The notes beneath the pieces are model-generated. The model did no database searches. It worked only from the letters and a program-made list of their open reading frames with translations, and was not told the DNA's origin. Shown here piece after piece: positions 3,104 to 54,030 of a stretch of DNA of 54,030 nt (within the stretch, counting starts at the first letter, position 1; every line of letters starts with the position of its first letter). Position numbers and translations under genes: made by a program. Source of the DNA: Escherichia phage BSBP01; the sequence record PQ231202.1; one strand, 5' to 3'.

Positions 3104-3104
3104 T

Positions 3105-23043: not shown

Positions 23044-23051
23044 TATTAACC

Positions 23052-27680: not shown

Positions 27681-27746
27681 CTATTGAAATTAATACACAT
27701 TCAAATAATGTTAAAGAGGTAACCGGGACGAATCCCGGCACCATTC

Positions 27747-32045: not shown

Positions 32046-32060
32046 GCTCTTACCTTAATG

Positions 32061-32516: not shown

Positions 32517-32525
32517 TGTTCACCC

Positions 32526-33974: not shown

Positions 33975-33976
33975 TA

Positions 33977-35684: not shown

Positions 35685-35730
35685 TACTATTTCTCTTAAG
35701 TTATGGGCGAGAATAGTCCCGCCCTATTTA

Positions 35731-36738: not shown

Positions 36739-36793
36739 GTAAATTAATCCGTTTTGTTTGATGAGGCGCAACCATTAATTGCGCCATTGCAAC

Positions 36794-37066: not shown

Positions 37067-37086
37067 CGTAGGAGCTGGAGGTGGCG

Positions 37087-37560: not shown

Positions 37561-37569
37561 TGTCTTACC

Positions 37570-38634: not shown

Positions 38635-39919
38635 TTGCGTTACCCTTTTGGATGTTAGGAGGATTAGGATTTGGCTTGCCAAGGTCACAAGTTCCGAACA
38701 CGCCCGAATGGAACATGACTTCGTTTGCAACTTCGGCAGTGATAGTACCGTTGTTAACCAGCAGGTCAACAGCAAATGCCAAATCTTTAGCTCGCTTCGC
38801 TTTCTCAACGTTGGATTCAGGGAAGATATCTAACCATTCGTAGTTATATTCTTCGATGCCAAAGTGCGCCTGGACAATCTTGTCTACCACATCTAAACGA
38901 GGGTCGAACACAGAAGTCTGCAAGCCTGTCAACAAGTCGATATAGTTTACGAGGTCAGATTCGCCCGTAGCATTCATACCGTCTGGAGATGCAGAAAGGA
39001 AACGTGTAGCCGGAATACCAACTGCGGCAGCAACTATCTTCAAGTATTCCCAAATCAAATCTTTCACACCAGACAGTGCAATTGACTTGGTGTCATACTT
39101 CTCAGTATTGTCGAGAATTAAGACATTATAAATACTCTTTGCCAGCTTCATAAGTTTGAAGCGCTTCATCACAGCAGCTTCACCTTCCGGTGATGTAAGC
39201 AGAGATTGTAAGCCTTCGACAGTTACCACATCAATGGTGGCTTCTTGGGCGAGGCTGGCAGCAGCAGCAGCAGTTGTGTAGAATTGGTCAATCGTTTTCA
39301 GCAGTGGAATAAGTACCGAATCGGAATACCACATGTTACGTTGGAATTCGAACAGCGGCAGTTCAGTACCCTCGAACCGAAGGAAACGAGTGTAGTGGAT
39401 ATAGCCGGGATACCCAGCCAAAGTGTAATACTCTGGCAAACCATAGTGAGGACTCAAAGGGTCCAGAACCATAGTCCCTGCGGCAAATAAGCGTGAGCGG
39501 TCAATAACTCTCATGGATTTAATACATCCAGTCTTCAAGTTATCCAGTCGCAATGGTGTATCAAGTTTTCCCGTACCTTTCAGGTCGAGCAGAACAAATG
39601 AAGTACCATACAATCTGGCCCATTGATATGCCTCACGGAACAGCTTACGAATACGAAGTTTCTTATCCGCTTTGCGTCCTTCTTCACTATCAATATGTCG
39701 CCACTTACGCGTCATGTCTTGAGGAATGACGGTACACACTTTCTGTGCAACCCAATCCTCACGGAAGCGGTTCATAAGTTCGCGATAGTTCGCGTTCTTG
39801 TTTGAGAAAGTCCACTGGTTGAAAGTAGACTTATCTGCTTGACCGCCCAACCCCGTTACAAGGTTTTCTAACCCATCTGCAACTTTAACAGAAAGATTGT
39901 TTTTCTTCTTGGAAGTCAT
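38603..39919 (-). CDS. Portal protein
   Basis: 438 aa immediately downstream of the terminase large subunit. Confidence 0.65.
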   Translation of the reverse strand: MTSKKKNNLSVKVADGLENLVTGLGGQADKSTFNQWTFSNKNANYRELMNRFREDWVAQKVCTVIPQDMTRKWRHIDSEEGRKADKKLRIRKLFREAYQWARLYGTSFVLLDLKGTGKLDTPLRLDNLKTGCIKSMRVIDRSRLFAAGTMVLDPLSPHYGLPEYYTLAGYPGYIHYTRFLRFEGTELPLFEFQRNMWYSDSVLIPLLKTIDQFYTTAAAAASLAQEATIDVVTVEGLQSLLTSPEGEAAVMKRFKLMKLAKSIYNVLILDNTEKYDTKSIALSGVKDLIWEYLKIVAAAVGIPATRFLSASPDGMNATGESDLVNYIDLLTGLQTSVFDPRLDVVDKIVQAHFGIEEYNYEWLDIFPESNVEKAKRAKDLAFAVDLLVNNGTITAEVANEVMFHSGVFGTCDLGKPNPNPPNIQKGNASEAKPKPGSA

Positions 39920-40143
39920 TATTTCTTCCTTAGAATAGTTCCATTACCCTTAACAATTTGAATGTTGTCGGAGGTGTGGAGTCGCAGATTCGACTCGTGC
40001 TTTAACTTAACACAGTCGCTCTCTGTGGTAGAAACTGCCTCAATCACACATAAAATGTTTCCTTCCAAATCTTGAATCTGGAAGGAGTTGTTCTTGCGTG
40101 AGCGGGCATCTAAACGAGTGATAACCGCCATATTTACATCCAT
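39919..40143 (-). CDS. Hypothetical protein
   Basis: 74-aa ORF between terminase and portal. Confidence 0.35.
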   Translation of the reverse strand: MDVNMAVITRLDARSRKNNSFQIQDLEGNILCVIEAVSTTESDCVKLKHESNLRLHTSDNIQIVKGNGTILRKK

Positions 40144-42179
40144 GCGGAGTAGTTGGCACTTGGGCCTGAGAATTCGATTGCAACCATATCTGAAACGTTA
40201 TCGACACAATCGTCGTGTCCAGTACCACTACCCAAAGAAGTGAATCCAAGTATTTCACGTCTAACATGGTCGATGTGTTCATGACCAGCAGGGAAGAATA
40301 TTCTCTTTTGCGAGAAATATGGGATTGCGTTAAGGAATCGAGTTACCTTGTCATTACCATTAATCCCATCACGAGGCAATGGCAAAACTCGGACACTCCC
40401 ATCTCTGATAAATTGTTGGTTCAAGAATTGTCCGGCAGACTTGTCTTCCATGTACAGTGCACGAGGAATACAACCTACGCATTTCAAGTCCAACTTGTTG
40501 CATTTGTTCCAGAAGTCGATGATAGCAGTCTTGAGTTCTGGAGTTTCAAACTTACCGAGCATAATATCTAAACAATAAACGTCACGCTCTTTAGTCACGC
40601 CCCAATGCTTAAGGACCGAATAATCAGAATAAGATTTGGCAGTTGATGCCGTATCCGCTGTAATAAAACTTCTGACTATGCGACTTCTGTCGAAAACGTC
40701 TGGCTCATACTCTTGCCACCAATCTTCTTTGATAAGGCCGTGGCCTTGTGCAGATGGGTCGCCAGCATACTGTGAATTGTATGTGTATGGGTTAGACTCT
40801 TTCATTGCCTCCAGAGATTCTAAGCTCTTACGTGAAGGCCATAATGCAGACTTCTCTTCCTTCCTGTTCAAATTATACAGAATGGGAATAGCATGAGTGT
40901 AGTTCTGCTTCTTGATTAACTTATCATACCATTCAGCACTTCCAACACCTTTCTCAATAATCGCTGGGATATTGAGATAATGGTATTTATCAGAAGAGCC
41001 ACCACGGAGTATATAACCAACTAAATCCTGGTCGTGAACCCGCTGCATGATGATAACCATTGGTGTACGGGCACACTTAATTTGGTTTCCGTACGAATCA
41101 GTTATGCAACCATCGTTGGCAAGGCGTGACATAAAGGTGTTATCAAATCGGTCGTTGATTTCTGCTCGAACTGTGTCAGAGTAGGCATCCTTAGGTTTGA
41201 TAACGTCATCCACCACGAAACAGCCAGAGTATTTTGCAACAAGAAGTCCAGCACCTTTACCAGTTAGCTTACCACCAGTAGGTACTGCGTGCATAACTCC
41301 AGCTTTGGTTGTACCCCAGCGTTCAAGAGAACGTTTGTTAGGGTCGATTCTCACCTTCGGGAATATTCGTTGGAACAGTGGGTCCATCATTACAGCACGG
41401 ATGTAACCACTCGATTCAAGAACAACGTCTTCTGCATACGAGGTGATAATGTTATGGCTTGATTCATTGTGGCAAAATGAATACAAGGGTAATGCGATAC
41501 TCATAAGCTGAGTCTTAGAGTGTCGTGGAGGAATGGTCACTATTAAGCGGTCAATCTCACCATCAACAACCTTCTGACCAACACTGAATATTACATCGTG
41601 AAAGTCTTGTGCTTGAAATGGAAATCCCATCTGAATATGGAACTGCCATTTACCAAAGGCTTCGAAACTTTTCATCAAGATTTTGCGAACACGTTCTGCA
41701 ACCTTGGCAGGGATTACAGTTGGGTCCACGTTATGTGGGTCATGCAGAATCTTGTCTACAAGTTCATCGGTGTTATCATGCTCCGAGTTTGGCTCCTCTA
41801 GTGTGGAACCTGCAACACGGTCAGTAACACCTGCTTGAATACCTTTCTTCAACTCATCTGCATAGGCAGTTGAGTCTTTCTTGTCGCCAGAGCGAAGACG
41901 CTCAAGTTGTGCTCTGAAAACGGAACGCAATACAGCATCGTTTTCAAGACCCTGGCCTTCTAACTCTGCTTGAATTTGTTCTTCATAGCTGTCAACTATT
42001 GCAGTATTTTCTGAAATATATCGACGGAGCAATGGCAAAGATAGAATACAGAATCTTTCTCTTGAGACTTTTAATACGTCACCGTAGTGCTTGGCAAGAT
42101 ACGAGGCTACTGTATCATTAAACTCCGGTCCGAGGTCATCAGTCTTTGACATTGATTCGTTCTCTTTGTTTTTAATCAC
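40134..42179 (-). CDS. Terminase large subunit
   Basis: ATPase P-loop-like TIPPRHSKTQ and C-terminal nuclease motif GHDDCVDN. Confidence 0.85.
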   Translation of the reverse strand: MIKNKENESMSKTDDLGPEFNDTVASYLAKHYGDVLKVSRERFCILSLPLLRRYISENTAIVDSYEEQIQAELEGQGLENDAVLRSVFRAQLERLRSGDKKDSTAYADELKKGIQAGVTDRVAGSTLEEPNSEHDNTDELVDKILHDPHNVDPTVIPAKVAERVRKILMKSFEAFGKWQFHIQMGFPFQAQDFHDVIFSVGQKVVDGEIDRLIVTIPPRHSKTQLMSIALPLYSFCHNESSHNIITSYAEDVVLESSGYIRAVMMDPLFQRIFPKVRIDPNKRSLERWGTTKAGVMHAVPTGGKLTGKGAGLLVAKYSGCFVVDDVIKPKDAYSDTVRAEINDRFDNTFMSRLANDGCITDSYGNQIKCARTPMVIIMQRVHDQDLVGYILRGGSSDKYHYLNIPAIIEKGVGSAEWYDKLIKKQNYTHAIPILYNLNRKEEKSALWPSRKSLESLEAMKESNPYTYNSQYAGDPSAQGHGLIKEDWWQEYEPDVFDRSRIVRSFITADTASTAKSYSDYSVLKHWGVTKERDVYCLDIMLGKFETPELKTAIIDFWNKCNKLDLKCVGCIPRALYMEDKSAGQFLNQQFIRDGSVRVLPLPRDGINGNDKVTRFLNAIPYFSQKRIFFPAGHEHIDHVRREILGFTSLGSGTGHDDCVDNVSDMVAIEFSGPSANYSAWM

Positions 42180-42357
42180 AATCCACTAATGGCTGAGTTT
42201 GCACGGGATTGATGCGAATGATGCTGCCTAAACCAGAATCGGCCTTTAAATACAGGCGGTTTAGTGGCATGTATGAATCACAGATAGGACATTGCTGCGT
42301 TATGAAATCATCTTCTGCAATTTCATAATGGCAGTTTGGACATTGTATTGTGCGCAT
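42172..42357 (-). CDS. Small zinc-ribbon protein
   Basis: CPNC...CPIC. Confidence 0.4.
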   Translation of the reverse strand: MRTIQCPNCHYEIAEDDFITQQCPICDSYMPLNRLYLKADSGLGSIIRINPVQTQPLVDCD

Positions 42358-42412
42358 AAGCGACTCCGAATAAGATAGGAGGCCAGATAGCCTCCCTAAT
42401 TATGCGTGTCGC

Positions 42413-42742
42413 TTAATATTTAATATCGCTCCAGGCCATATCTTTATAGAAATCTTCAAGATATGCTTGGGTAGAACCAACAACCACCACAATCTTAAAT
42501 GGCAGTATCAGCGGCTTAACAGCCGACATTAAATCTTCGCGCCCACGCTTGATACGTTCGACGTTCTTGATTGTGTTTTCACCATGTGGAAGCATGAAAA
42601 CGATAACATCCGCACCTGTTTCATTGCGAACTGCAAGTGCACGGGTGAGATAAGTCCCGCCACCAGTAGAGGTGACATTAGACTTGAGGTATGCAAATTT
42701 AACTTTGCGGTTATTTACTACAACAGGTGAGGACAGTTTCAT
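42413..42742 (-). CDS. Hypothetical protein
   Basis: 109-aa ORF. Confidence 0.45.
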   Translation of the reverse strand: MKLSSPVVVNNRKVKFAYLKSNVTSTGGGTYLTRALAVRNETGADVIVFMLPHGENTIKNVERIKRGREDLMSAVKPLILPFKIVVVVGSTQAYLEDFYKDMAWSDIKY

Positions 42743-42759
42743 TTCAGATAGGTTCCAGA

Positions 42760-43359
42760 TTATTTGTAACGTTCGGCCCCATGAGTGTGGGAACCAGTGA
42801 TTTCAACAGTTCCTGGCAAAGACACTTTCACACCACCATCACCAGTAATAGAGATGCTGTGTGAGTGTAAACCGTCAGGAATATGTGGCCTTTCATGCGG
42901 TCCAAGTTCAACACGACCAGTCGAGCCAAAGCCACCTTCACCACGACCAGTTGCATTCAAGCGGTCAACTTCAACGAAATGGTGTTGAGTAGCTTTACTA
43001 ACTTGCACCTGACAAATACGTTCACCTGGTTGAACCACAAAGGCTGTGTCCGAGTCGTTGTGCAACTTAACCATAAGATTGCCACGATAATCGGAGTCCA
43101 GAATTCCTGTGCAATTTGCCAAGCGGATGCCAGACTTAAAGCCATGACCAGAACGGCTATGTACTTTGAGTTCGTATCCAACTGGAATCTCGAATTGGAG
43201 GCCAGTATCGAAAACAGCAGAGCAGCCGGGATTGATAACAACAGTGCTATCGGAGATAGTGCAAACGTCAGCAGCAGCAGCGCCAGCAGTAGCGTACACA
43301 GGTAATTTCGCATTGGGATGCACTCGTTTAACTGCAACAACTTGGGTCATACAAGACAT
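42760..43359 (-). CDS. dut: dUTP pyrophosphatase with about 45-aa C-terminal extension
   Basis: All five dUTPase motifs (AGAAAADV, RSG, GILDSDYRG, RICQ, RGEGGFGSTG), then extension ending SITGDGGVKVSLPGTVEITGSHTHG. Confidence 0.85.
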   Translation of the reverse strand: MSCMTQVVAVKRVHPNAKLPVYATAGAAAADVCTISDSTVVINPGCSAVFDTGLQFEIPVGYELKVHSRSGHGFKSGIRLANCTGILDSDYRGNLMVKLHNDSDTAFVVQPGERICQVQVSKATQHHFVEVDRLNATGRGEGGFGSTGRVELGPHERPHIPDGLHSHSISITGDGGVKVSLPGTVEITGSHTHGAERYK

Positions 43360-43361
43360 GA

Positions 43362-44000
43362 TTATTTCTCTACTTGATAAGTTACGCGTTCAATCCAGTT
43401 GAACACTTTGAATACAGAATCACCCACTTTACCATCAACTAAATGTTCGTCCACTGTTACGCGGGTAGGTGTGTCTGGGAGGTTGATGTATCTGCGAGAA
43501 TCGCCCGTGAAATCAAAACCATCACGATGCAAACGCACAATGAGGACAAAATCATAAGCAGACTCAATGGCAACGACTTCATCACCAAAACCGCCATCGG
43601 GATAAATGACATTAATAATGCCACCCATACGCCCCGCGAGTTCTTCAACACGAGCAGCTTCAACCTTACCGAAGTAGTCTTGTCCGTAGCGAGGTTTATA
43701 CACATCTTCGCTAACGTGAATAAGAGCCTGACGAGGTGTTCTGCCACCAAGACCTGCAAGGGAGATAGAGTCTTTGAGGTCACGGTCCGAAGCGTAGTGA
43801 ATAAACTTGTCCACATCAACTTGAAAGTGTTTGGCAGTATGCTCATACAGTGCATCCTTAAACTGGTGTTTAATGAACTTGCGCTTACCGAGAAAGTATG
43901 GTTCCTCGGCAGCAACAATCTTATTTGCGATGGTGTCTTTACCGCAGCCAGGAGGTCCATTGAGAATAACAGCTAGTCGCTTAATCAAAACTTTCCTCAC
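43362..44000 (-). CDS. P-loop nucleotide or nucleoside kinase
   Basis: Walker A ILNGPPGCGKDT; start uncertain because the longest ORF overlaps the ligase 3' end. Confidence 0.55.
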   Translation of the reverse strand: MRKVLIKRLAVILNGPPGCGKDTIANKIVAAEEPYFLGKRKFIKHQFKDALYEHTAKHFQVDVDKFIHYASDRDLKDSISLAGLGGRTPRQALIHVSEDVYKPRYGQDYFGKVEAARVEELAGRMGGIINVIYPDGGFGDEVVAIESAYDFVLIVRLHRDGFDFTGDSRRYINLPDTPTRVTVDEHLVDGKVGDSVFKVFNWIERVTYQVEK

Positions 44001-44736
44001 TTTTGTCTGCACGTAAACGAACGAGTGACGGGAACCGGAACTTACCAGCTTCTGTCTTCTCACGATATCGAACTTGCATAATCGAACCAATTAGCTCGTG
44101 GCGATGTTCCCACAACCACTTACGAATCAATGTGTTAGATTCTGGAATACCGTGGTCTGCCAGACAATCTTTCACCATTGAACCAGCACTGCCGTAGTTC
44201 GAAGAGATAGAACCACACATACCTTTAAGAGCACCAGTACCTTCTTTCATACCAGTAATCTTCACATCGGCGTATTTATATGGTACAATCTTCCACCACT
44301 TACCTTTTGCATCACGGACAATGATACCTTCATGACCAAGCGCCAGATATTTATCCATCAATGCCTTAAGGTTTTCATTGCTTGGGTCTTTGCACCAGCC
44401 GATGTACAAGCGTGGGTCAACAGCACCATCACTCAACTCATACACATTGTCCTGGGTTAGTGGGATGCTTGGCGGGTCAATACGTCCGAGGATGCTAGAA
44501 GTCTCATTCCAACTATTACGGAATATCTCAGCATCTCTGAACTGTAAGTGGTCCAAATGAGGTAGGGGTTTGGAATTACGACTCCAGACACTACCTGATT
44601 TATTACGGATAGCTCGAATTCCGTCAATCTTGATGAAGAGTTCACAGCGCCCTTTGATACGGCAGTCTGGGTCTTCCCAATCATGTGCGTGAGCCTTTGT
44701 GTATCTTGTACCATCATCGAGGAGCTTAATAGACAT
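43981..44736 (-). CDS. Compact ATP-dependent DNA ligase
   Basis: Motif I KIDGIR near residue 34, EGIIVR, WWKIVPYK, and motif VI-like FRFPSLVRLRADK. Confidence 0.6.
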   Translation of the reverse strand: MSIKLLDDGTRYTKAHAHDWEDPDCRIKGRCELFIKIDGIRAIRNKSGSVWSRNSKPLPHLDHLQFRDAEIFRNSWNETSSILGRIDPPSIPLTQDNVYELSDGAVDPRLYIGWCKDPSNENLKALMDKYLALGHEGIIVRDAKGKWWKIVPYKYADVKITGMKEGTGALKGMCGSISSNYGSAGSMVKDCLADHGIPESNTLIRKWLWEHRHELIGSIMQVRYREKTEAGKFRFPSLVRLRADKSEESFD

Positions 44737-45250
44737 TAAGATTCTTTCTCAGGTATTCTCGAACAGCATTCTTGCGTCCGATTTTGGTTTTAGGAACTGG
44801 CTCTATTTTAGCAAGATTGCACTTGGCAATTTGCTCTTCGTCAGACAATTTGGCAAATGCAATACACTTCTTCTCAATGACTGCATCACGTCGTGATACA
44901 CCATATCGTTCCATGTATGTAATAATGCCGTGACAATCTTTACACAGCAATTCCAAATCTTCTGGCTGAACCAGTAAAAGGTTGTCCACAAAGCGGTGCA
45001 GGTCTTCCAATTTAAGGAGGCCACCAACTTGGACTTTGTGGTTTACTTCAATATCTTTGAGCTTATACAACTTCTTGCAATGGTAGCATTGAATGTGGAA
45101 GATTGGTTTCTTTGAGTCACCAACCTTCAATGCAATGCGTCGAGATTGTATTAGCGCGAGTTTGCTTGGGTGTTTAGACCAAACACTTCGAATAGCAGAT
45201 TGGAGCCAAGATACAAACTTGGCTTCCGTTCCACAATAACCGTAAGCCAT
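44726..45250 (-). mobile_element. HNH homing endonuclease (free-standing)
   Basis: CYHC ... NH ... CKDCH pattern; between exonuclease and ligase genes. Confidence 0.65.
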
Positions 45251-45261
45251 TCCAACTCCAA

Positions 45262-46323
45262 TTATTTCTGGAGGTACTCTTCTTGAGTGAGGATACGATT
45301 CTCTTTAAGGTCAAAGTATTCGTTAATGTTCTTGTAATGCCACAAGCGAACACAATTACCTTTTTCAATTTGATGGTGCATGTAAACAAGACGGCCCACT
45401 TTGAGCAGCTCTTGTTCCCAACCATCTCCGAAGCGCACAATATATGCACCAATAACTTTCTTCAAACCTTCTGCATAGGAGGTTGTACCATCCAGCATCT
45501 CGAATGAAGCAACTGCACCAATGCCATCACGACGGAAATAAGTTTCTCCGGCTTTGGCACCAGTTTTGTAAATTCTTTCTTCAAGAACTCCGCAACCCAT
45601 AACGTTATCCGTTGAGTCGCCAATAAGCAATTGATGCAGGAAGAATTTGGGGCCATTGCCTTTAACTTCTTTCTTCTTCGACTTGCCATTATCCTTGATG
45701 ATTAATTTGAGTTCACCATAATCTTTAGGGATTACGATTTTCTCACCAATACCCTGGGTTTCACGTTCCCATTGGTAATGTTTGATTACTGGACCAACAC
45801 CACCGTTCTGCCCGATTTGGCGCAAGTCTTTGTCCAACGATGCAATCCAGACTTCATCATATGTGCAAGGACCAATGCGCTTGAGGCTCTTAATCTCATT
45901 ACGTTTGCCCATTGTTGCTTCGTATTCATGACGGGCGAATACAGCCAGAAGGTCATCTGCTTCCAGACCTTTCATCCACATCCCATTCCATGCAACCATA
46001 ATATGTGCTTTCGCATTCTTGAGGTTTTCTGGACGCCATACGTTATCACGGTTGCCCTTATAGTCAGGAGCAAATACGTGCCTCATGGTTTCAGATGGGG
46101 ATACAAAACTCATAATCTCCGTAGCGCCAGAGCGCTTGGCGAGGAACTCCATTTTGGAGTCTATGGACATTTGAATCTTAGCAAAGTTAATATCTTCGGG
46201 GTCTTTGCCATACTCTTCCGCAGCGCAGTGGCTGAATGCAACCATGTCTGCATCTACAAGAAGCAGAACTCGTTTCTTACTCACTTTGGTAAGCTCCAAA
46301 TTAAAGGCTCCCGAAGGAGCCAT
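45262..46323 (-). CDS. 5'-3' exonuclease (T7 gp6-like FEN)
   Basis: LLLVDADMVAF and LLIGDSTDNVMGCG motifs. Confidence 0.7.
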   Translation of the reverse strand: MAPSGAFNLELTKVSKKRVLLLVDADMVAFSHCAAEEYGKDPEDINFAKIQMSIDSKMEFLAKRSGATEIMSFVSPSETMRHVFAPDYKGNRDNVWRPENLKNAKAHIMVAWNGMWMKGLEADDLLAVFARHEYEATMGKRNEIKSLKRIGPCTYDEVWIASLDKDLRQIGQNGGVGPVIKHYQWERETQGIGEKIVIPKDYGELKLIIKDNGKSKKKEVKGNGPKFFLHQLLIGDSTDNVMGCGVLEERIYKTGAKAGETYFRRDGIGAVASFEMLDGTTSYAEGLKKVIGAYIVRFGDGWEQELLKVGRLVYMHHQIEKGNCVRLWHYKNINEYFDLKENRILTQEEYLQK

Positions 46324-46331
46324 ATTTATAA

Positions 46332-47198
46332 TTAGAACGGCATACCTGTACCGCCAGCAGCACCACCTTCCGCTTCACGCTGTGCTTTTGCAGCAGCCTG
46401 TGCTTCCAGTTCAGCTTTCATAGCTGCATCAACTTCTTCATCAGAAGCCTGATTCGGTACAGCGCCTTCATCGGCAGGTTTGCCGCCTAACAGTGCAGAC
46501 AGCTTGGTCTTGTAGAAATCAACACCGGAAGTAATACGGTTCTTGATTGCATACGGAGATTCGCCACCAGGCAGCTTGTTGAATACTTCCAGGTCCGGCT
46601 CAGACATGTCGAAGAAGACAGTCGGGTTAACCAGTGCTTTAGCTTCTTTCTTCTCTTTGGATTTCATCGGAGAGAAGGTAGCAACTTTGTTCGCAACCTG
46701 ACCCGCATTCTTACCTGACTGCTTGGTATATTGAACAATGCCAACAATCAGAGGTTCGCCCAACCAATCCGGCAGGTTCTTGGCAGGATGGCCCTGAATG
46801 CCTTGTTCCAGATTAGGTTTAACTTCCAGTGCATCAATCGCCTTAGCGAATTTGTAGATGTGGGAGTTCTCACCCATGAAGCCGTCAGCATTATAGGTAA
46901 ACTCAAAGTCAAACCAACGCGGCTTGTCTTCAAGATTCTTCGCCATCATGATGCCGTCATCTTCGTCTGGGTCTTGGACCATGACCATTTTACCTTCACT
47001 GTCAACTTCTTTCATGTACTCGTCGAGCAGTTCGAAAGTCACCAGAAGTTTCAGAGACGGGGTAGGATATTTAGCAGAACCAGGCTGTAAGCCCAGGTCG
47101 ATAATACGGCAAACACGAGCAGGATAACCACCCGCTTCCAGTAATGGTGCAGCAGAAGGAGTCTTGTTCGAGGCCAGTGTAGGAGCAGCAAATGCCAT
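46332..47198 (-). CDS. Putative ssDNA-binding or annealing protein (T7 gp2.5-like position), C-terminus ending PF
   Basis: 288 aa, acidic C-terminal region ending GTGMPF, located between polymerase and exonuclease. Confidence 0.35.
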   Translation of the reverse strand: MAFAAPTLASNKTPSAAPLLEAGGYPARVCRIIDLGLQPGSAKYPTPSLKLLVTFELLDEYMKEVDSEGKMVMVQDPDEDDGIMMAKNLEDKPRWFDFEFTYNADGFMGENSHIYKFAKAIDALEVKPNLEQGIQGHPAKNLPDWLGEPLIVGIVQYTKQSGKNAGQVANKVATFSPMKSKEKKEAKALVNPTVFFDMSEPDLEVFNKLPGGESPYAIKNRITSGVDFYKTKLSALLGGKPADEGAVPNQASDEEVDAAMKAELEAQAAAKAQREAEGGAAGGTGMPF

Positions 47199-47214
47199 TT
47201 TGAGTACCTTTAAA

Positions 47215-47460
47215 TTACAGTTGAGTGATAACTAGGGAGAAGTCCAGGTCGTTCATACAAGAGATTAACTCTTGCTCATTGACGACAGGACCAGATAAAG
47301 TTTTAATGAATGCCTGATACATTGAATTGGCAGCATAATCACTTCCAAATAATGTTCCAGCATTCTCGGTAATTACAGACAGCACAGCTTCCCGTGCGTC
47401 TTCACCTTTCTTGACAAAATGGAAATGGTCCACTTTGTCGAATATAGATACAACAACCAT
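47215..47460 (-). CDS. Hypothetical protein
   Basis: 81-aa ORF. Confidence 0.45.
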   Translation of the reverse strand: MVVVSIFDKVDHFHFVKKGEDAREAVLSVITENAGTLFGSDYAANSMYQAFIKTLSGPVVNEQELISCMNDLDFSLVITQL

Positions 47461-47954
47461 TAGTGAATCTCTGCGTAGTTATCGCCAAATTGTACATCAC
47501 ATGCACAATCACGATTGAGTTTAAGTTCTTTGTTGGTCCGGTCCATTGCTTCATTAAGCAAGTCCGTCCACAAATCACGGAAACCTTTCTTAACTTGGAG
47601 AATCAATTCATCATGGAATTGTCCAGACAGAAGCGGGTCACAGCCCCAACGTTCATTGCAAATTGCAATAATGTTGTTACACCAAATATCAAACACATAT
47701 GCACCAGTACCCTGACACAATGTGGAGAAGCGGTCTTTCTCGGTGCGCAATGAATACCAGAATTTGTTTACTGGATTCTGTTGCCACATCTGACCATCAA
47801 CTGTGATAACTTTGGTGTTTGCAGCAATCTCTTTAATAGACCAGTTCAAGTCCCAATATGCTTTATGCAGTCGTGCAGCAGTAGTCTGGTCACAGCCAGC
47901 AGAACGAGCTACAGTTGGCACACCAGCACCATATTGACCATTTACATTGTTCAC
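47460..47954 (-). CDS. DNA polymerase, C-terminal fragment (rest of motif B and motif C)
   Basis: Begins GQYGAG completing motif B; contains QFHDELIL motif C; ORF opens with GTG immediately after an in-frame stop. Confidence 0.75.
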   Translation of the reverse strand: MNNVNGQYGAGVPTVARSAGCDQTTAARLHKAYWDLNWSIKEIAANTKVITVDGQMWQQNPVNKFWYSLRTEKDRFSTLCQGTGAYVFDIWCNNIIAICNERWGCDPLLSGQFHDELILQVKKGFRDLWTDLLNEAMDRTNKELKLNRDCACDVQFGDNYAEIH

Positions 47955-48083
47955 ATGAAGTCGTTAATTTCATGCCGGAACGAATCCAGCTGCATGTCAC
48001 CATGCAGAGCAGACTATATCATCACCGACCTATGTCGGGTCCCCCGTTTCCACCCACTTGGGTGTACGCCTTACGGCTAGTCG

Positions 48084-48521
48084 TTACACGTTCATGAAAG
48101 CATCTTGACAATCGTGATGAAGCTGGTGGCAACGCTTACAAAGCAACTCAAAGTTGCTCCTAACATTATTGCTTCTATCATGGTCACGATGATGAATCAC
48201 ACGTTCCGTATAGTGTACGTTCAGCAGATTCTTACCACACCTTTCACAACACTTAAGTTCTTCAAGCATTTCCTTTCTGGCACGTACATATTCACCTTTG
48301 CCGGAAGAGTAGGTTTTGCTTTCTGGACCTTTTGCGTGTTCAAAGTTTCCAGTGCCAGCACCACAGTTTATACCTTTCTTAATACACTGATTAACATAAG
48401 AACGGTCTCTGCACTCTTGCGCTGCAATATCAGAACAAGGTTTGCACTTGGAACTTCTTGGTCCTGTGGGAATGAACATCTCTCCACAAGAACATTTCTT
48501 AGGTTGGTAATTTCTTTTCAT
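48084..48521 (-). mobile_element. HNH homing endonuclease inserted inside the DNA polymerase gene
   Basis: Cys-rich zinc motifs and HHRDHD..N..CKRCHQLHH; lies between the two polymerase fragments. Confidence 0.8.
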
Positions 48522-48590
48522 GCTTCGCTCGGTATTGTCTCTGCGGCAGAGAGTTCCACCGAATTAAAGGGATTTTACATGCGCATCAAT

Positions 48591-50048
48591 TTACGCATAG
48601 TTTGTAGTCTTAAACATTGGACGTTGTTTACACTTCTTAATCCCGTCCTTGTGGTCCTGAGATTCCTGTTCGGTAATAAATCCACCAATTACGCCGATTG
48701 CAAGGTGAGCATCATAGTCTGGTGCCAACTGCTTCTTAACGTATTCAGGGTCATACATCCATTGGAAGTGGTGTTTACAGCGGTCTTCCAGTGAACACAA
48801 GTCAGAGCCTAACTGTTCGTAGTCTTCGCGCCACGCTTCCAACATTGAACGCAGTTCTTCACCGCCAAATACACGAATAGAAGGGAGGTTAACAAGTTCG
48901 CGGTGTTTAAGACGTAAAGTATTGGTAAGGCCACCACATCGTGCAGTAAGGTATCCGTCTTCATCGACGTCGCGAAGGAAACCGTTAACAACAGAGAGAC
49001 GGTGTTTATATACGCCCATCCCAATAAGATGTTGAATACCAGAGTCGGGGTTTCTTTCCGCCAGCTTATGCAAGCTCGGACATATTTCAGGATTGCCATC
49101 TTCATCCTTCACAGTGATTTGTGGAATCTGGCGAGTTTCACCTGTTTCCTTATTACGGTCGAACTTAAAGGTTTCTGGTTCCCAACCTAGGCTGAACAAC
49201 CAATCTTTGATTTGAACATGTGAACCAGCATTAGGCTTCTTGTAACCTTTAAGAACCTTGATAGCCAGGTCTGGGTCTTTCCAGTCCAAACCGTTCGCAT
49301 CACAAATAGCCTTCCACTTAATTCCAGTGGCAGACAGTTGCCCGTTCATCTTGTGGCATTTAGCTGGACGGGTCTTGATAACATACTCCGGAACACGAGG
49401 CATTGATGCCTCCAATGCGTCCGTCTTCTCTTTAATCATTGGTTCCAGCTTGGCCTTAAATGCCAATGCCTTCTCAATGTTCAGCTTCCAGCGAGTGCGT
49501 TGTTGAATAACTTGTTGACGAGCTTTTGTCATCAGATATTCAACGAAGCGTTTAACTTCGCCAGGAGATTTATAAATCTTCAAGAGTTGAATGTATTGCT
49601 GTTCCCACAGCTTCAACTGAATCTTGCAGTCTTCCATCACACGATGGTTGTACTCTTCTTGAGTTTGATTTTCCCAATCTTCAATGACTGGTTTTGGCAC
49701 ACCAAACTCTTCGCCGTAACCTTCTAAGCCGTGCTTAACACGACGAGGTTGCAGATACCAACTAATAAACAAAGTATCAATAAACACACACTTGGAGGTA
49801 TCGTATCCAAGGAATATGAGCGCTTCATTATCAAAGCACATACTATTGTGCATGACCAGCGTAGGTCCGGTATCCAAGAATGCTTGTACAGATTTTCTGT
49901 CAGTCCACTCTATTACATTCTCTTCCCTGGTTTGTATATCTATAAAACCAATATTGTGCAGACGAGGTGCGGACTGTTGCTTCATTTGCTCAAGCAAGCC
50001 TGTAGTCTCTATATCTGCGGCATACATATTATTCCAAGGGTATAACAT
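48591..50048 (-). CDS. DNA polymerase (family A), N-terminal fragment with 3'-5' exonuclease domain
   Basis: Exo motif AADIETTG; ends ...RPMFKTTNYA inside motif B. Confidence 0.8.
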   Translation of the reverse strand: MLYPWNNMYAADIETTGLLEQMKQQSAPRLHNIGFIDIQTREENVIEWTDRKSVQAFLDTGPTLVMHNSMCFDNEALIFLGYDTSKCVFIDTLFISWYLQPRRVKHGLEGYGEEFGVPKPVIEDWENQTQEEYNHRVMEDCKIQLKLWEQQYIQLLKIYKSPGEVKRFVEYLMTKARQQVIQQRTRWKLNIEKALAFKAKLEPMIKEKTDALEASMPRVPEYVIKTRPAKCHKMNGQLSATGIKWKAICDANGLDWKDPDLAIKVLKGYKKPNAGSHVQIKDWLFSLGWEPETFKFDRNKETGETRQIPQITVKDEDGNPEICPSLHKLAERNPDSGIQHLIGMGVYKHRLSVVNGFLRDVDEDGYLTARCGGLTNTLRLKHRELVNLPSIRVFGGEELRSMLEAWREDYEQLGSDLCSLEDRCKHHFQWMYDPEYVKKQLAPDYDAHLAIGVIGGFITEQESQDHKDGIKKCKQRPMFKTTNYA

Positions 50049-50055
50049 AATTACC

Positions 50056-50463
50056 TCAGTATTTTGGAGTATTCTTCATGTGCCAATTTTCGTGACACTG
50101 CTTACAAAGCCATCTTACCATCAAGGGTTTCGAATAGTCGTCGTGGTGTGCCTCCAGCTTCTTATCTTGAGTACACATCATACATCTGTTTGGTTTAACT
50201 ATCCTTCCAAACTTAAGTGCAGCATTTACCAAACTTCTTGCACGCTCCCTCTCAGGCCGCACTTCTCGGTATCTTTTGCACCTGGCATTGTTGAGTTCCC
50301 GCTCTCGTTCAATATTACGAACAGGCTTCTCTGGTAATGGTGCAGATTTGTACTCTGCACGGTACTTTAAGCTTTTGCACAACTTGCACCAAGATGAACT
50401 CTTGTGAAAGCCTGCTTCATCTTTAGGTACTTTGCACTTAGGACAAATTTTCATCATTTCCAA
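50056..50463 (-). mobile_element. HNH-type endonuclease (free-standing)
   Basis: CPKC, CKLC and C-terminal HHDDYSKPLMVRWLCKQCHENWH. Confidence 0.55.
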
Positions 50464-50518
50464 TTATTGTAAAGTGAGGGCTACGCTGGTGGGCGAACCA
50501 TGCAGCGCAGCAGCTCTG

Positions 50519-52282
50519 TTATTGATGTGGACCGTTCTTCTTAGTAAGCTGAACAATCTCTTTGGTTTCGAACAGCGAGTCATCCCAAGAACGTTGAATA
50601 ATTCGACCAGATTCGGTGTCATAATACGTCTTGAAGCCTTCTGTTTTACCACTCTTACGAGCTTTGATGGAACGAATAATAGAACAGTTTGGGTCAACTG
50701 CCTGGCTATTACGCTCAAAGCCGAACATACCATGAGAATATTTAGCAGCAGCACGTGAGCCAGTAAAGTCTGACTTCTTGATACGTCCACCATCTTCATG
50801 AGGTCGCTGACCTTTTGCAACAGGGTTAAGGTGCGACAGAATATTTACATGGAACTGATATTGGTCTGCCAGCTTAGTAATATCTGCATACAGCTTACCC
50901 AAGAAGTCGTTCTTCTCTGAGGCAGAAATCCCTTCCGATAAGTAGGTTAAGTTATCAAGGACAAACATATCAATGTCTGGTCCAATCTGACGAAGAATCG
51001 TCTTTAACCCATCCCAGGTTTCATAAGGGTCTTCTCCAGCTTGCTTGCGGTCCCAAATCTCCATGTTACGAAGCATCTTCGCAGCAGTTTGACGGAACTT
51101 AGCTTCATCATATCGAGGGTCTTCACGAGTAAACGCAGGTTCCCAATATGGCAAGTTGTCATTAAGGCCAGCCATTCGGCGCAATGTTTCTGTAGGAGTT
51201 TCCTCCATGTATGCAGTAAACACTCCCCAATCGTGCTTGGTAATGTTGTGATGCACAATCTGACGGGACAGCGTAGTTTTACCACCACCTTCTGCACCAC
51301 CGATTGTAATAACTTCGGCTCGACGTTGACCAAACATTAAGTCGGTTAACTTTGGCCAAGGATAGTCCACACCCTGTTCAACCTCGTCATCAAGCTCTTC
51401 CATAAGAAGTTCTTTGTTGACAAGTGCTGTAGGCAGAGGACGAGCCGCACGGAACACAACAGCAGATTGAGTAGCTTTGAGCAAGCCACGCTTCAAACAA
51501 TCGTTGGCATCGTTAGCTGGAAGTGTTGCAATCATTGCACCAGGCAACAATCGACACGCTTCTTTTGCAGCTTTACGTCCAGGTTCGTCATCATCAAATA
51601 CGATAACAACCTGTTCCCAACGTTGCTTAATTTCTTCTGCAACTGGTGACAAACATTTGTGTACGGAATCACTCCCGTCACTCAAACTAATTACAGCAAA
51701 ATCCAAATCTTCATATGCACCACCACGGTTCATAGTCTTGAGGATTTGACGCAATGCGATACAGTCTTCTTCACCTTCAGTGATGAACAATGTCTTACCG
51801 CCAATTGCTTTTGCAGCCAACCAGTTGTAGGGTTCGTTGCCTTGTGTATCGCCAACAGACCACATAACTTTCTTGTTCAGAAGTTTAATCTTCCAACGAA
51901 CAAGTTTGCCATTTTTGGTGTAGCCATGTGCCAGAGCATTTGGAGTCTTCCCATCATACTCTGAATACAGAAGTCGAACACCAGCAGCTTTCCAGAATTC
52001 TGGTTCGATGCTGCGATGGGTTAAATCAAACGGAGGACAAGCAGTGATTTCATCAACTTCTTCCTGAATTTCTTCTGGAGTCTTGACTTTAATCTCTGGA
52101 ATGTTCTCCGGATTATTGCCATAAGGATTTGGTACTAGAACGCCACACGCAAAGCAGTAACCAGAGAAGTTCTTATTACCAGCTTCATCGACATTCAACC
52201 AAACCTGTAAAGACTTGCCAGATGTGGATTTACAGTCTGGTACATCGTGCTTAATCTTAGCCACACATTGCTTGACGTTCAT
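50519..52282 (-). CDS. Bifunctional DNA primase-helicase (T7 gp4-like)
   Basis: N-terminal zinc finger, TOPRIM FITEGEEDCIAL and VFDDDEPG, helicase P-loop GGAEGGGKTT. Confidence 0.85.
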   Translation of the reverse strand: MNVKQCVAKIKHDVPDCKSTSGKSLQVWLNVDEAGNKNFSGYCFACGVLVPNPYGNNPENIPEIKVKTPEEIQEEVDEITACPPFDLTHRSIEPEFWKAAGVRLLYSEYDGKTPNALAHGYTKNGKLVRWKIKLLNKKVMWSVGDTQGNEPYNWLAAKAIGGKTLFITEGEEDCIALRQILKTMNRGGAYEDLDFAVISLSDGSDSVHKCLSPVAEEIKQRWEQVVIVFDDDEPGRKAAKEACRLLPGAMIATLPANDANDCLKRGLLKATQSAVVFRAARPLPTALVNKELLMEELDDEVEQGVDYPWPKLTDLMFGQRRAEVITIGGAEGGGKTTLSRQIVHHNITKHDWGVFTAYMEETPTETLRRMAGLNDNLPYWEPAFTREDPRYDEAKFRQTAAKMLRNMEIWDRKQAGEDPYETWDGLKTILRQIGPDIDMFVLDNLTYLSEGISASEKNDFLGKLYADITKLADQYQFHVNILSHLNPVAKGQRPHEDGGRIKKSDFTGSRAAAKYSHGMFGFERNSQAVDPNCSIIRSIKARKSGKTEGFKTYYDTESGRIIQRSWDDSLFETKEIVQLTKKNGPHQ

Positions 52283-52286
52283 TTAT

Positions 52287-52967
52287 TTATTCCTGGTTGG
52301 TCAGAGCCTTCCAACAAATTGGGAATAGTTCTGACATGATTTTATTCACTTCTTCCGCAAACAAGCGAACTTCATATTGCGCATGTTCGGAGGAACGTTG
52401 ATTATACATAGATGCCCAGCCATAAAGTGAGCCAGTCCAAATCCATTCAGTCATCATGGATTGTGGAAGAACCATGCGAGCTTGCTCTGGGGCAATCCCC
52501 AAACCAATTAACGTTTCATACTCTGCGATGCAAGCCTTGTTATAGCTTTCCATGCGATAATGAATATCGTCAGCAAAATCTTGTGGCAACGGTTGTGCAG
52601 TCTGAGTCATCAACTTTTCAGGACGACCAAATACAACACCTGGAACAAAGCATTCAATAGAGATTGCTTCGCCATCTTTGTAACGACGGCTAACCTCATT
52701 CCAACTAAAGCCAGTTTGATGTTTGCCAAGCTGACGTGCAATGAAGATTGGAGCTTTGCAACGCAATGTTACCTGTGCATGACGGAACGGCGTAATGTGT
52801 TTATGCTTTGCAAGAAACTCAATCAGCTTCTCGTCACGTAAAGATATTTCATGTGACTCTGCACCATAAGAAACTCGTGCAGCATTAACAGTTGTGAGGT
52901 CGCTGCCCATTGAATCTACTAATGTTGCGGTTATTTGTGGCTTAACCATTATTTGCGTATTCTCCAT
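52287..52967 (-). CDS. thyX: Flavin-dependent thymidylate synthase ThyX-like
   Basis: Aligns by eye along its length to ThyX; RHR position reads KHQ. Confidence 0.7.
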   Translation of the reverse strand: MENTQIMVKPQITATLVDSMGSDLTTVNAARVSYGAESHEISLRDEKLIEFLAKHKHITPFRHAQVTLRCKAPIFIARQLGKHQTGFSWNEVSRRYKDGEAISIECFVPGVVFGRPEKLMTQTAQPLPQDFADDIHYRMESYNKACIAEYETLIGLGIAPEQARMVLPQSMMTEWIWTGSLYGWASMYNQRSSEHAQYEVRLFAEEVNKIMSELFPICWKALTNQE

Positions 52968-53394
52968 GATATATTTTTCTTGCTACCTTGATAGCAGCCT
53001 CGGCATCTTCGAGATTGTCAAAGCTGCCAACGTATATTCGTTTACCATCTCCAACACGAATCCTCGCCACAAACTTTCCGCGAGCATCTTTATGCACACC
53101 TTTTACCCCAGATGTGTTGTTAGAGTTAATTCTTCTGTTGTGACAGTTCTGCAACTGTGTTGCTTCTCGCAGGTTGGATGGAACATCGTTAAAAGTGTTT
53201 CCATCAATATGGTCAACCTTATCTACAATCTTGCCAGTATTCATGTAGTACACAAGTACGTGCCTGCAAACACTGTAGTGCTTGCCGCCAAGGTATAGTG
53301 CTGTTTTGGCGTACCTTCCACTGCAAGTCCAATTTATTTGGTCAAACCTTTTTGCAGCCGTGTCTAACACAAATTTCTTGGACAGCCTATTCAA
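52942..53394 (-). mobile_element. HNH endonuclease with AP2-type DNA-binding domain
   Basis: HIDGN..N HNH core and GVKGVHKDARGKFVARIRVGDGKRIYVGSF AP2-like segment. Confidence 0.65.
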
Positions 53395-53453
53395 TGTTTG
53401 CTCTCCGGTTCATATGGTGGGAGATAAATTAGCTCCGCACCATGATAATGGTA

Positions 53454-53684
53454 TTATTTTAATGACGCCTGAATTTCTTTCATAGACGCATTTAGTACAG
53501 AACGCTTTTCATATTCGCGTTGATTGTACGTGTTTGTCAGTGCTTCCGCAGCTTCTATTGACAAGATTGCAAAACCGCCAAAGGCATTGCGAACTTCTTC
53601 AATATCCATGTGCAGGACTTCACTTGTGATTTGGCTGGCTATTACGGCCTTATAAATCTCTTCGGCAATTTCAGCAGTTTTCAT
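53454..53684 (-). CDS. Hypothetical protein
   Basis: 76-aa ORF, first gene after the junction non-coding region. Confidence 0.4.
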   Translation of the reverse strand: MKTAEIAEEIYKAVIASQITSEVLHMDIEEVRNAFGGFAILSIEAAEALTNTYNQREYEKRSVLNASMKEIQASLK

Positions 53685-53880
53685 GTTTCTCTCCAGTTAA
53701 AATTTAAGTAAGTGCCCTGAGTATTACAAAACACTTATTAAATTTGATTCGAACCGCCCAAGTGAATCAGCCTTGTTTATGGGGACCATCGGGGAAAAGT
53801 ATAAACCCGCTTAATGCTCGCATCATGTTTGAACATTAAGAACCCTCGACTTGCATATTTCATGTGTATAGGAACATAGT

Positions 53881-53897
53881 CTGGATTTTGAATCCAG
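53881..53897. other. Perfect hairpin (7-bp stem CTGGATT/AATCCAG) adjacent to the terminal repeat
   Basis: ctggattttgaatccag. Confidence 0.3.
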
Positions 53898-53903
53898 CTA
53901 ACT

Positions 53904-54030
53904 TCGGGATGAGGAGTAACCCAAATAAAAGCCTGAACTTTCTTTCTGCACAACACAATCAGCGCAACTAAGCCGTATCGCTACGGTATGCCAGACGCTC
54001 TCTTGAGCCTTTTGAACAGAGGCATAACTG
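53904..54030. repeat. Second copy of the 127-bp terminal repeat
   Basis: Identical to 1-127. Confidence 0.9.

Follow-up and report, generated by a model that had tools for sequence, protein, structure and literature searches.

Escherichia phage BSBP01 (PQ231202.1), analysed here as a single window of 54,030 nucleotides, is a GJ1-like Chaseviridae phage whose family A DNA polymerase gene carries an insertion. The initial annotation described two polymerase ORFs, with an HNH endonuclease ORF between them and the interruption in motif B, and we found this description, including the motif B placement and the HNH call, to be correct. All of the features of the locus lie on the minus strand:

48593..50048, minus strand: DNA polymerase exon 1, with codons 1–485 and the first base U of Cys486; 3' end AAC UAU GCG U (ORF list, BLASTN)
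47939..48592, minus strand: group I intron of 654 nt, subgroup IA2 without P2, absent exactly from intronless homologues (Rfam RF00028)
47460..47938, minus strand: DNA polymerase exon 2, up to the stop codon, whose first bases, GU CAA UAU GGU, complete Cys486 and lead into QYGAG (BLASTN, Pfam DNA_pol_A on the C-terminal part)
48591..50048, minus strand: N-terminal ORF of 485 aa, ending KTTNYA and a stop (ORF list)
47460..47954, minus strand: GTG-started ORF of ~164 aa, reading MNNVNGQYGAG (ORF list)
48084..48521, minus strand: intron-encoded ORF of 145 aa for a putative HNH homing endonuclease, in the P6a loop (phrog_25862 match)

BLASTN comparison with the intronless polymerase genes of PO103-1 and phiEcoM-GJ1 places the limits of the insertion to the base. 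The exon 1 alignments to both relatives stop at 48595/48593, and the insertion, previously drawn at 47955..48590, spans 48592..47939 (654 nt; the earlier ends were off by 16 nt and 2 nt). The intron opens with AAAUUGAUGCGCAUG and closes with AAUGUAAAUG (...AAAUG), and thus has a terminal G. The predicted exon junction is ...AAC UAU GCG U|GU CAA UAU GG... (AACTATGCGT|GTCAATATGG), which revises the proposed fusion of KTTNYA to GQYGAG: the true join is KTTNYA-C-QYGAG, in which the intron divides the Cys codon as U|GU. The stop codon UAA of the N-terminal fragment (48593..48591) consists of the last exon base and the first two intron bases. At the other end, the MNNVN of the GTG-started ORF is intron sequence, and the G codon that follows combines the last intron base with two exon bases.

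Removal of the 654 nt yields an uninterrupted ORF of 644 aa that is collinear with those of intronless relatives, the comparison with uninterrupted homologues that had been proposed as a check. Aligned with the polymerase of PO103-1, the joined protein shows no internal gaps, and the two sequences are identical over the junction. The joined protein has one continuous match to Pfam DNA_pol_A (PF00476; 42.2 bits against a cut-off of 34.3; residues 382–642), and neither polymerase fragment alone reaches this curated cut-off. Because excision restores a frame that matches PO103-1 and a single Pfam match, chance can be excluded as an explanation for the interruption. Motif B is conserved and lines the nucleotide-binding site. 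In the joined protein it follows the pattern K-x3-[YF]-x3-Y-G, with KTTNYACQYG aligned to KTFIYGFLYG of T7 gp5; the intact motif reads KTTNYACQYGAG, and the tryptic peptide expected across the junction is TTNYACQYGAGVPTVAR. A sequence search of the PDB with the spliced polymerase returned no usable relative.

The two ORFs exist as described, and the gene could in principle be expressed in pieces, with a non-splicing HNH element, either free-standing or degenerate, and a polymerase assembled from two polypeptides (485 + ~164 aa). Non-splicing HNH insertions in phage genes are documented, one HNH insertion in Pectobacterium phage vB_PatM_CB7 gave no spliced product, and the split NrdA of Aeromonas phage Aeh1, discussed in the same paper, is a precedent for a two-polypeptide product (PMC7344957). 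However, the C-terminal fragment begins at a GTG for which no Shine–Dalgarno sequence occurs in the preceding 20 nt (CAUGAAAUUAACGACUUCAU), as the initial annotation had noted, and this codon (47954..47952) lies in the P9.2 stem, overlapping its last base. Cys486 would also be missing from the two-piece product, and six residues derived from the intron would lie within its O-helix. Together with the RNA structure and the splicing of a homologous intron described below, these features make a polymerase in two pieces very improbable. In-frame stop codons, together with the structure of the RNA, rule out an intein.

The covariance-model search that had been suggested for a group I core gave a full-length match to Rfam RF00028 (Intron_gpI) at 47990..48602 (model positions 1–253, 32.5 bits, E = 4.5e-6), below the gathering score of 50; at the gathering threshold there is no match in the whole 54,030-nt window. 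The shortfall probably reflects the 438-nt ORF and the P7.1/P7.2 insertions. A relative that has the same core but no ORF, intron 1 of Aeromonas phage vB_AsaP_MQM1, reaches 75.1 bits and exceeds the cut-off. All helices from P3 to P9.2 could be placed in the BSBP01 intron, and P2 is lacking:

48578..48599, minus strand: P1 hairpin, exon UAUGCGU (48599..48593) with guide GCGCAUG (48584..48578), 7 of 7 pairs; the last exon base forms a U·G pair at the 5' splice site
48585..48590, minus strand: P10 guide AUUGAU, 6 of 6 pairs with the start of exon 2, GUCAAU (47938..47933)
48566..48572, minus strand: P3 5' strand UCCCUUU, 6 of 7 pairs with its long-range partner CGGGGGA (48046..48040)
48529..48562, minus strand: P4–P5 domain, with P4 UCGGUG/UACCGA (48562..48557 with 48534..48529), from minimum-free-energy folds
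48552..48547 with 48543..48538, minus strand: P5 UCUCUG/CAGAGA, from minimum-free-energy folds
48012..48082, minus strand: 3' side of the catalytic core (P7, P7.1, P7.2, P8), from RNAalifold on 25 relatives and pair counts
48082..48078 and 48016..48012, minus strand: P7, 5' strand GACUA and 3' strand UAGUC
48077..48068, minus strand: P7.1 GCC-GUAA-GGC, followed by the GUA linker (48067..48065) and P7.2 (48064..48051)
48038..48025, minus strand: P8, followed by J8/7 UGAUGAUA (48024..48017)
47939..48007, minus strand: peripheral 3' helices P9 (48007..47990, GUGA tetraloop), P9.1 (47989..47975) and P9.2 (47974..47954)
after P9.2, minus strand: 15-nt 3' tail of the intron, with the terminal G at 47939

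Subgroup IA2 is recognized by extra P7.1 and P7.2 helices between P7 and the 3' strand of P3, joined by G-U-A (PMC3428280), and the BSBP01 intron has exactly this arrangement (GCCGUAAGGC-GUA-CACCCAAGUGGGUG, 48077..48051). The last P3 pair is a U–C mismatch. The 5' segment of the intron folds more stably than expected (z = −3.2; 0 of 200 shuffles as stable), and for the 3' half by itself the gain in stability over shuffled sequences is only modest (z = −1.84).

The architecture is supported by covariation. RNAalifold applied to 25 homologous 3' halves recovers P7, P7.1, P7.2, P8, P9, P9.1 and P9.2, and in 25 of its 35 pairs at least one sequence is changed on both sides with pairing kept. For the 5' side, the cores of relatives were collected using the P4'/P6 motif. 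In a hand-built P3–P8 model of 22 core sequences, 96.5% of cells are paired compared with 32–49% for slid partners, and double changes occur in 21 of 35 pairs, among them 5 of the 7 pairs in the long-range helix P3. Covariation is also seen at two pairs each of P4 and P5 and in both P7.1 and P7.2; P7 is invariant in the core set, but it was used for collecting the sequences and is hence uninformative. Between the BSBP01 intron and that of Escherichia phage vB_EcoM_4HA13, the non-coding 5' part is identical at 69 of 71 positions, and the differences in the 3' part, in an alignment read by eye, all fall in hairpin loops or in compensatory pairs (two in P9.2 and one in P7.2). The ribozyme core is thus complete, covarying and conserved far beyond the synonymous sites of the embedded ORF, which argues further against an insertion that does not splice.

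In the 145-aa protein whose ORF occupies the P6a loop, Cys residues cluster near the N terminus and an HNH motif (CCERCGK...HHRDHD...N...CKRCH) lies at the C terminus. The CxxC...HH...N...CxxCH signature is visible, and the catalytic HNH residues and both Cys pairs are present. The protein matches the PHROG family phrog_25862 ‘HNH endonuclease’ (E = 6e-25), and a PDB sequence search found no usable relative of solved structure for it. If it acts in homing, its target in GJ1 or PO103-1 would be the intronless sequence ACCACAAACTATGCTTGTCAGTATGGTGCTGG. The intron might alternatively splice while its endonuclease no longer drives homing, the ORF being in decay or domesticated and the intron inherited only vertically in BSBP01. 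Consistent with this, the Pfam HNH matches are weak and under their cut-offs (HNH_3, 18.4 versus 24.8; HNH, 17.4 versus 21.4), no obvious Shine–Dalgarno sequence precedes the HNH AUG, this AUG is paired inside P6a (CAUG 48522..48519 with CAUG 48096..48093), and the BSBP01 intron differs by 13% from the one other allele lineage known. However, the ORF is intact in all three known intron alleles, retains the residues listed above, and between BSBP01 and 4HA13 shows dS = 0.87 and dN/dS = 0.10 with 85.5% protein identity; substitution patterns indicate that it is under purifying selection. Given also the evidence for recent movement presented below, we consider loss of homing unlikely, although less so than a polymerase made in two pieces.

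Phage 4HA13 (MN136198.2; Chaseviridae, Sabourvirus), in which the polymerase CDS is annotated as a join with an internal HNH gene, has the identical insertion point (GCG U|GU CAA), the same architecture and the HNH ORF in the same place. The paper on 4HA13 does not mention the intron, and a literature search on Chaseviridae together with introns returned nothing relevant. The two introns are 86.6% identical, differing by loop changes and the three compensatory pairs, whereas the exons are less alike (exon 1, 74.5%; exon 2, 84.4%); beside the junction, the BSBP01 exons are GJ1-like and ~98% identical to those of intronless phages. Among 134 matching phage records, the intron is present in two, which represent one phage. 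A scan of metagenomes with a 22-mer from the 5' core found a third allele, L008 (contig OGVK01001484.1), and an unrelated intron, L009, which lies in a terminase-like gene. Searches of IMG/VR found only 4HA13 itself with the exon–intron junction, and 4HA13 plus two distant loci with the HNH protein. Three independent sequences (BSBP01, the isolate 4HA13 and the metagenome contig) therefore carry the insertion at the same nucleotide. This recurrence and the base-exact boundaries with functional RNA signatures leave a negligible probability that foreign DNA was joined into the polymerase gene by an assembly or sequencing artefact. All three intron-bearing alleles have two silent variants at the junction, GCG and CAA, which are found together in 0 of 13 intronless alleles. 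The 4HA13 and L008 introns are 99.7% identical and their exons 77–83% identical; because near-identical introns sit in diverged exons, sequence comparison indicates that this lineage moved recently by lateral transfer between diverged phages.

More distant relatives interrupt the same motif. Phage CB7 has an HNH intron between the polymerase pieces CB7_53 and CB7_51 that RT–PCR showed to splice in infected cells (PMC7344957), a further point against a split polymerase in BSBP01. The CB7 intron is shared with phiTE, and introns of the same type occur in Klebsiella Mydovirus phages and in E. coli phage Av-05, hosts that belong to another family (Vequintavirinae). The HNH proteins of this type are homologous to that of BSBP01 (37–44% identity; CB7_52, 44%), and so is the 3' ribozyme core (69–71% nucleotide identity over the HNH end and P7–P9). 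Both types interrupt motif B of a family A polymerase, but the CB7-type insertion, its position fixed by the intronless phage A7_1, lies one base upstream and between codons (TYG|IMYG), whereas that of BSBP01 lies within the next codon (U|GU). The Klebsiella intron, as read from its sequence, appears to have a P2 hairpin, which the BSBP01 intron does not.

Intron 1 of the MQM1 polymerase gene, annotated as a join and without an endonuclease ORF, has a core close to that of BSBP01 (75.6% identity over P7–P9.1) and is also in motif B and in phase 1. Its insertion point (AUC U|AU GCG) lies 6 nt upstream and falls in the codon for the first aromatic residue of the O-helix; P2 is present and an HNH gene absent, the reverse of BSBP01. 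The polymerase intron of PhAPEC5 has this 3' core too but is placed in the RLS..PN.Q.IP region, outside motif B. According to a 2012 survey (PMC3428280), the T7-like polymerase genes of PhiI and W31 (I-TslI) and of cyanophage Pf-WMP3 (I-PfoP3I) contain self-splicing group IA2 introns with HNH genes, which resemble the BSBP01 intron in having P7.1/P7.2 joined by GUA and the HNH ORF in P6a. Pf-WMP3 also shares the absence of P2, the C-terminal HNH motif and a UAA at the intron start (PMC3428280). In Pol I numbering, the survey gives insertion positions of 881 (PhiI, W31) and 674 (Pf-WMP3, SPO1, Bastille), compared with ~764 in BSBP01. None of the PhiI, W31 or Pf-WMP3 phages or introns is among the phage records matched by the BSBP01 HNH protein at E ≤ 1e-5.

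Taken together, the polymerase gene of BSBP01 very probably holds a mobile group I intron of subgroup IA2 that would splice out of the transcript and encode an HNH homing endonuclease. The group I reading is supported by the Rfam match, the U·G pair in P1, P10, the terminal G, the covarying core, the annotated join in 4HA13 and the spliced CB7 homologue. The initial annotation, which leaned towards splicing, had also offered a free-standing endonuclease that split the gene into two polypeptides; this is not supported, and every computational test that we ran favours the intron. We propose that the guide forms P1 with the end of exon 1, placing the U·G pair at the cleavage site, and P10 with the start of exon 2. 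The IA2-type P3–P8 core would bind guanosine and remove the intron, and ligation of the exons would give one 644-aa family A polymerase with an intact motif B; ribosomes translating unspliced RNA would terminate at the UAA across the 5' splice site. The 145-aa HNH protein probably acts as a homing endonuclease that, in mixed infections, would cut or nick polymerase alleles lacking the intron, close to where motif B is encoded, and recombinational repair would then copy the intron into them.

The polymerase is best annotated as one CDS, join(50048..48593, 47938..47460) on the minus strand, in place of the two fragments and the GTG start, with the HNH gene labelled as intron-encoded. Mobile group I introns that carry HNH genes are well-known selfish elements of phage replication genes, and the BSBP01 case is an ordinary one that leaves the understanding of group I introns or homing unchanged. 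It adds a second, 13%-diverged allele of the Chaseviridae polymerase intron, now in a GJ1-like background, and joins a broader group of HNH introns whose target is the part of the gene encoding motif B, a site absent from the three polymerase intron sites (674, 676 and 881) of the 2012 survey (PMC3428280). All phage copies of the HNH intron that we examined lie in the stretch of a family A polymerase gene that codes for motif B (O-helix). The groups concerned are Chaseviridae, Vequintavirinae, Acinetobacter phages annotated with T7-type polymerases, a Xanthomonas phage and Aeromonas phages, and the insertion points fall at 763|764, inside 764 and at 764|765. We tentatively raise the possibility that the HNH gene and the ribozyme form one old lineage that has travelled together and spread over unrelated phage groups, with the insertion point shifting by 1–3 bases. 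If this is true, the lineage would offer a natural series in which to study the joint retargeting of a homing endonuclease and a ribozyme guide sequence.

The polymerase gene of this phage, which belongs to the Chaseviridae (subfamily Cleopatravirinae), is interrupted by a real but ordinary mobile group I intron that carries an HNH homing endonuclease. An intron of this kind is already annotated in one relative, Escherichia phage vB_EcoM_4HA13 (4HA13), and supported experimentally in a homologue, Pectobacterium phage vB_PatM_CB7 (CB7). The intron reading proposed in the initial annotation is upheld by the complete architecture, covariation, the 4HA13 record and the spliced CB7 homologue. The features of the region are as follows:

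52282..50519, minus strand: primase/helicase
50463..50056, minus strand: free-standing 135-aa endonuclease-like ORF (phrog_2340, E=1.6e-32; CxxC...HH...CxxCH)
50048..47460, minus strand: polymerase region
50048..48591, minus strand: N-terminal polymerase ORF, 485 aa, ending in KTTNYA and a stop codon
48521..48084, minus strand: intron-encoded HNH-type ORF, 145 aa (phrog_25862 match)
47954..47460, minus strand: C-terminal polymerase ORF, 164 aa, GTG-started, with N terminus MNNVNGQYGAG
46323..45262, minus strand: 5'-3' exonuclease, further downstream of the polymerase
44726..45250, minus strand: HNH endonuclease ORF, 174 aa, immediately downstream of the exonuclease gene (phrog_1985, E=1.4e-59)

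The three ORFs initially annotated within the polymerase region were all found (485 aa ending in KTTNYA, 145-aa HNH type and GTG-started). BLASTN alignments to the polymerase genes of PO103-1 and phiEcoM-GJ1 (GJ1), which have no interruption, extend to 48595 in the window and resume at 47938, with two subject bases left between the blocks, which places the inserted DNA at 48592..47939 (654 nt); the insertion was thus correctly recognized, but not its extent (47955-48590, 640 bp). Excising it joins 48593 to 47938 and restores a 1935-nt ORF of 644 aa, whose alignment to the polymerase of PO103-1 has no internal gaps and shows identity over the junction (...RPMFKTTNYACQYGAGVPTVAR...). The intron splits the codon of Cys486 (U/GU, the slash marking the insertion), and the UAA stop of the N fragment consists of the exon U and the first two bases of the intron. 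The spliced protein has a single Pfam DNA_pol_A match, at 382-642 across the junction, of 42.2 bits, above the curated cut-off; the C fragment alone scores 31.0, under the cut-off, and the N fragment alone has no Pfam match. KTTNYACQYG aligns with KTFIYGFLYG of T7 gp5, that is, motif B in the O-helix, and the interruption therefore lies inside motif B, as first proposed; the suggested rejoining of KTTNYA to GQYGAG gave the right motif but the wrong junction. In published numbering, the equivalent of the split codon is T7 F528 and E. coli Pol I L764, with the two conserved aromatic residues on either side. An artefact is excluded because three independent sequences carry the insertion, and the stop codons rule out an intein.

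The covariance-model search proposed earlier returned a match to the Rfam group I intron model at 48602..47990 that is full length (positions 1-253, E=4.5e-6), although its 32.5 bits fall under the curated 50. In our view, score is lost through the 438-nt ORF and through P7.1 and P7.2, which are additional helices; with the same core but no ORF, intron 1 of the polymerase gene of Aeromonas phage vB_AsaP_MQM1 (MQM1) scores 75.1 bits. Elements of the intron RNA were assigned by hand, and their coordinates were then checked:

P1: UAUGCGU with GCGCAUG, 7/7 pairs, the final exon U opposite G
P3: UCCCUUU with CGGGGGA, 6/7 pairs
P4, P5, P6 and P6a: all placed
P7: GACUA with UAGUC
P7.1: loop GUAA, connected via GUA to P7.2
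P8: followed by J8/7 UGAUGAUA
P9: GUGA loop, followed by P9.1 and P9.2
47939: terminal G of the intron
P10: AUUGAU with exon 2 GUCAAU, 6/6 pairs

P2 was absent from this hand placement. Minimum-free-energy folding recovered all local helices, and stability relative to shuffles was clearly higher for the 5' segment (z = -3.2) and modestly higher for the 3' segment (z = -1.84). The P7.1-GUA-P7.2 arrangement is the criterion that placed the intron of cyanophage Pf-WMP3, which self-splices, in subgroup IA2 (PMC3428280); the window intron resembles it in this arrangement and also in having no P2.

Sequences similar to the 3' core occur in hundreds of phage records, some annotated as polymerase or thymidylate synthase introns, and more than 120 IMG/VR contigs contain a 17-mer that covers the end of P8 together with J8/7 and P7'. 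From 25 relatives of the same subtype, RNAalifold independently predicted P7, P7.1, P7.2, P8, P9, P9.1 and P9.2, with changes on both sides that keep the pairing in at least one sequence for 25 of 35 pairs. The 5' core was also found in 22 introns, using a motif that excludes P3. Across these, the hand-made P3-P8 model pairs 96.5% of cells, compared with 32-49% when the 3' partners were slid by 1-3 columns; double changes occur in 21 pairs, and the long-range P3 covaries at 5 of its 7 pairs. P7 is invariant by construction and thus uninformative.

The closest allele, in 4HA13 (Sabourvirus), is inserted at the same base and is 86.6% identical. In the GenBank record of 4HA13 (MN136198.2), the HNH gene lies within a polymerase CDS annotated as a join; the paper describing this phage makes no mention of an intron. 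Between the two alleles, the HNH ORF has dS = 0.87 and dN = 0.086, and the ratio of 0.10 places the endonuclease under purifying selection. Its AUG is paired within P6a, and no clear Shine-Dalgarno sequence lies upstream. It is possible that the endonuclease of the window allele is no longer active, but the dN/dS ratio and the intact motif oppose this. The non-coding 5' part is identical at 69/71 positions, and in our reading of the alignment all differences in the 3' part are located in hairpin loops or compensatory, with one such pair in P7.2 (C-G to U-A) and two in P9.2 (G-C to A-U and A-U to G-C). A working ribozyme would be expected to show this pattern. A gene split into two polymerase polypeptides, with the second translated from the GTG, is very improbable: this start has no ribosome-binding site, consistent with the initial annotation, and is located in the P9.2 stem, the product would miss Cys486 and contain intron-derived residues in the O-helix, and the conserved, covarying ribozyme would be unaccounted for.

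Several observations indicate mobility of this intron lineage. The polymerase region has matches in 134 phage records, and the insertion is covered in just two of them, both from 4HA13; GJ1-like coliphages such as Ecp_YSF, PO103-1, SKA49 and phiEcoM-GJ1 are 91-94% identical to the window over this region. A third allele is found on a metagenome contig:

2690-3344 of L002 (4HA13): intron
1848-2502 of L008 (contig OGVK01001484.1), minus strand: intron

These two introns are 99.7% identical and their exons only 77-83% identical, a clear sign that the intron has recently been transferred laterally between diverged members of the Chaseviridae. The window exons are approximately 98% identical to those of intronless GJ1-like phages as far as the junction, which leaves room for no more than a very short co-conversion tract. 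The junction sequence is GCG U/GU CAA in each of the three alleles with the intron. In 13 intronless alleles, the first codon is GCT, GCC or GCG and the later one is CAG in 12 and CAA in 1, with GCG and CAA together in 0/13. The G at -2 completes P1, and we infer that the GCG/CAA variants may also protect against the endonuclease.

The HNH protein matches only 32 records in the phage collection. In all seven relatives examined outside the Chaseviridae, the HNH gene has an ORF on each side, and the readable junctions are all in or adjoining motif B. The intron is at the 763/764 equivalent (TYG/IMYG, FA/NQYG; anchored by the intronless phage A7_1) in Klebsiella Mydovirus NDO71 (L143), E. coli Av-05 (L146), CB7 (L147) and Acinetobacter KEN_02 (L150), and at 764/765 (FQR/AYG) in Xanthomonas NR08 (L148). 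In Aeromonas HJ05 (L149, OQ594355.1, ~1310-2095), it apparently interrupts codon 764 after its first base (GGG U/UU UUG), a position and phase apparently identical to those in the window. The insertion point thus shifts by 1-3 nt between lineages (763/764, inside 764, 764/765). A sequence resembling motif B is also present at the junction in Xanthomonas DES1 (L151), which at 27% identity is the most distant of these relatives. The flanking ORFs of HJ05 and DES1, annotated only as hypothetical proteins, are read as the putative two halves of a family A polymerase, divided in or beside motif B. Further HNH genes are present in the same region of NDO71, Av-05, CB7, NR08 and KEN_02, and additional polymerase pieces in CB7 and KEN_02. 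The CB7 intron with the HNH homologue, CB7_52, separates CB7_51 from CB7_53, and RT-PCR on infected cells showed that it is spliced (PMC7344957). In MQM1, a related ORF-less intron is located 6 nt upstream, at codon 762. PMC3428280 gives three polymerase intron sites (674, 676 and 881), none of which is the motif B site. Outside the Chaseviridae, the 5' core has its closest relative (87% over 54 nt) within a terminase-like ORF, which it interrupts (...GQQIIFRGL), at ~3636-3706, minus strand, of a 5102-nt contig (L009/L010; ERZ808267 NODE-1640 = IMGVR_UViG_3300012344_000229). The 3' core also matches this contig, more weakly (76% over 71 nt).

Three HNH-type genes occur inside 6 kb of the replication module. 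The 135-aa ORF fills the space that separates the polymerase gene from the primase/helicase gene; the corresponding place in phiEcoM-GJ1 is taken by an unrelated HNH gene, and PO103-1 has just 86 nt between the two CDSs, with no endonuclease gene there. Given these differing contents, the site looks like a hotspot for various homing-endonuclease genes. The first ~200 nt of exon 1 (~49850..50048, minus strand) have 65-73% identity to PO103-1 and GJ1, in contrast to 82-100% for the rest of the gene, a sequence pattern that marks a mosaic boundary adjoining the upstream free-standing endonuclease gene. ARAGORN found no tRNA genes across the whole window (1..54030); according to a paper on the related phage SKA49, GJ1-like phages carry one tRNA-Arg gene, which contains an intron in GJ1 (PMC10282059).

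By analogy with group I introns in general and with the CB7 experiment, guanosine-initiated self-splicing would yield one 644-aa polymerase, and, as for other homing endonucleases, cleavage of intronless alleles by the HNH protein may drive homing of the intron.
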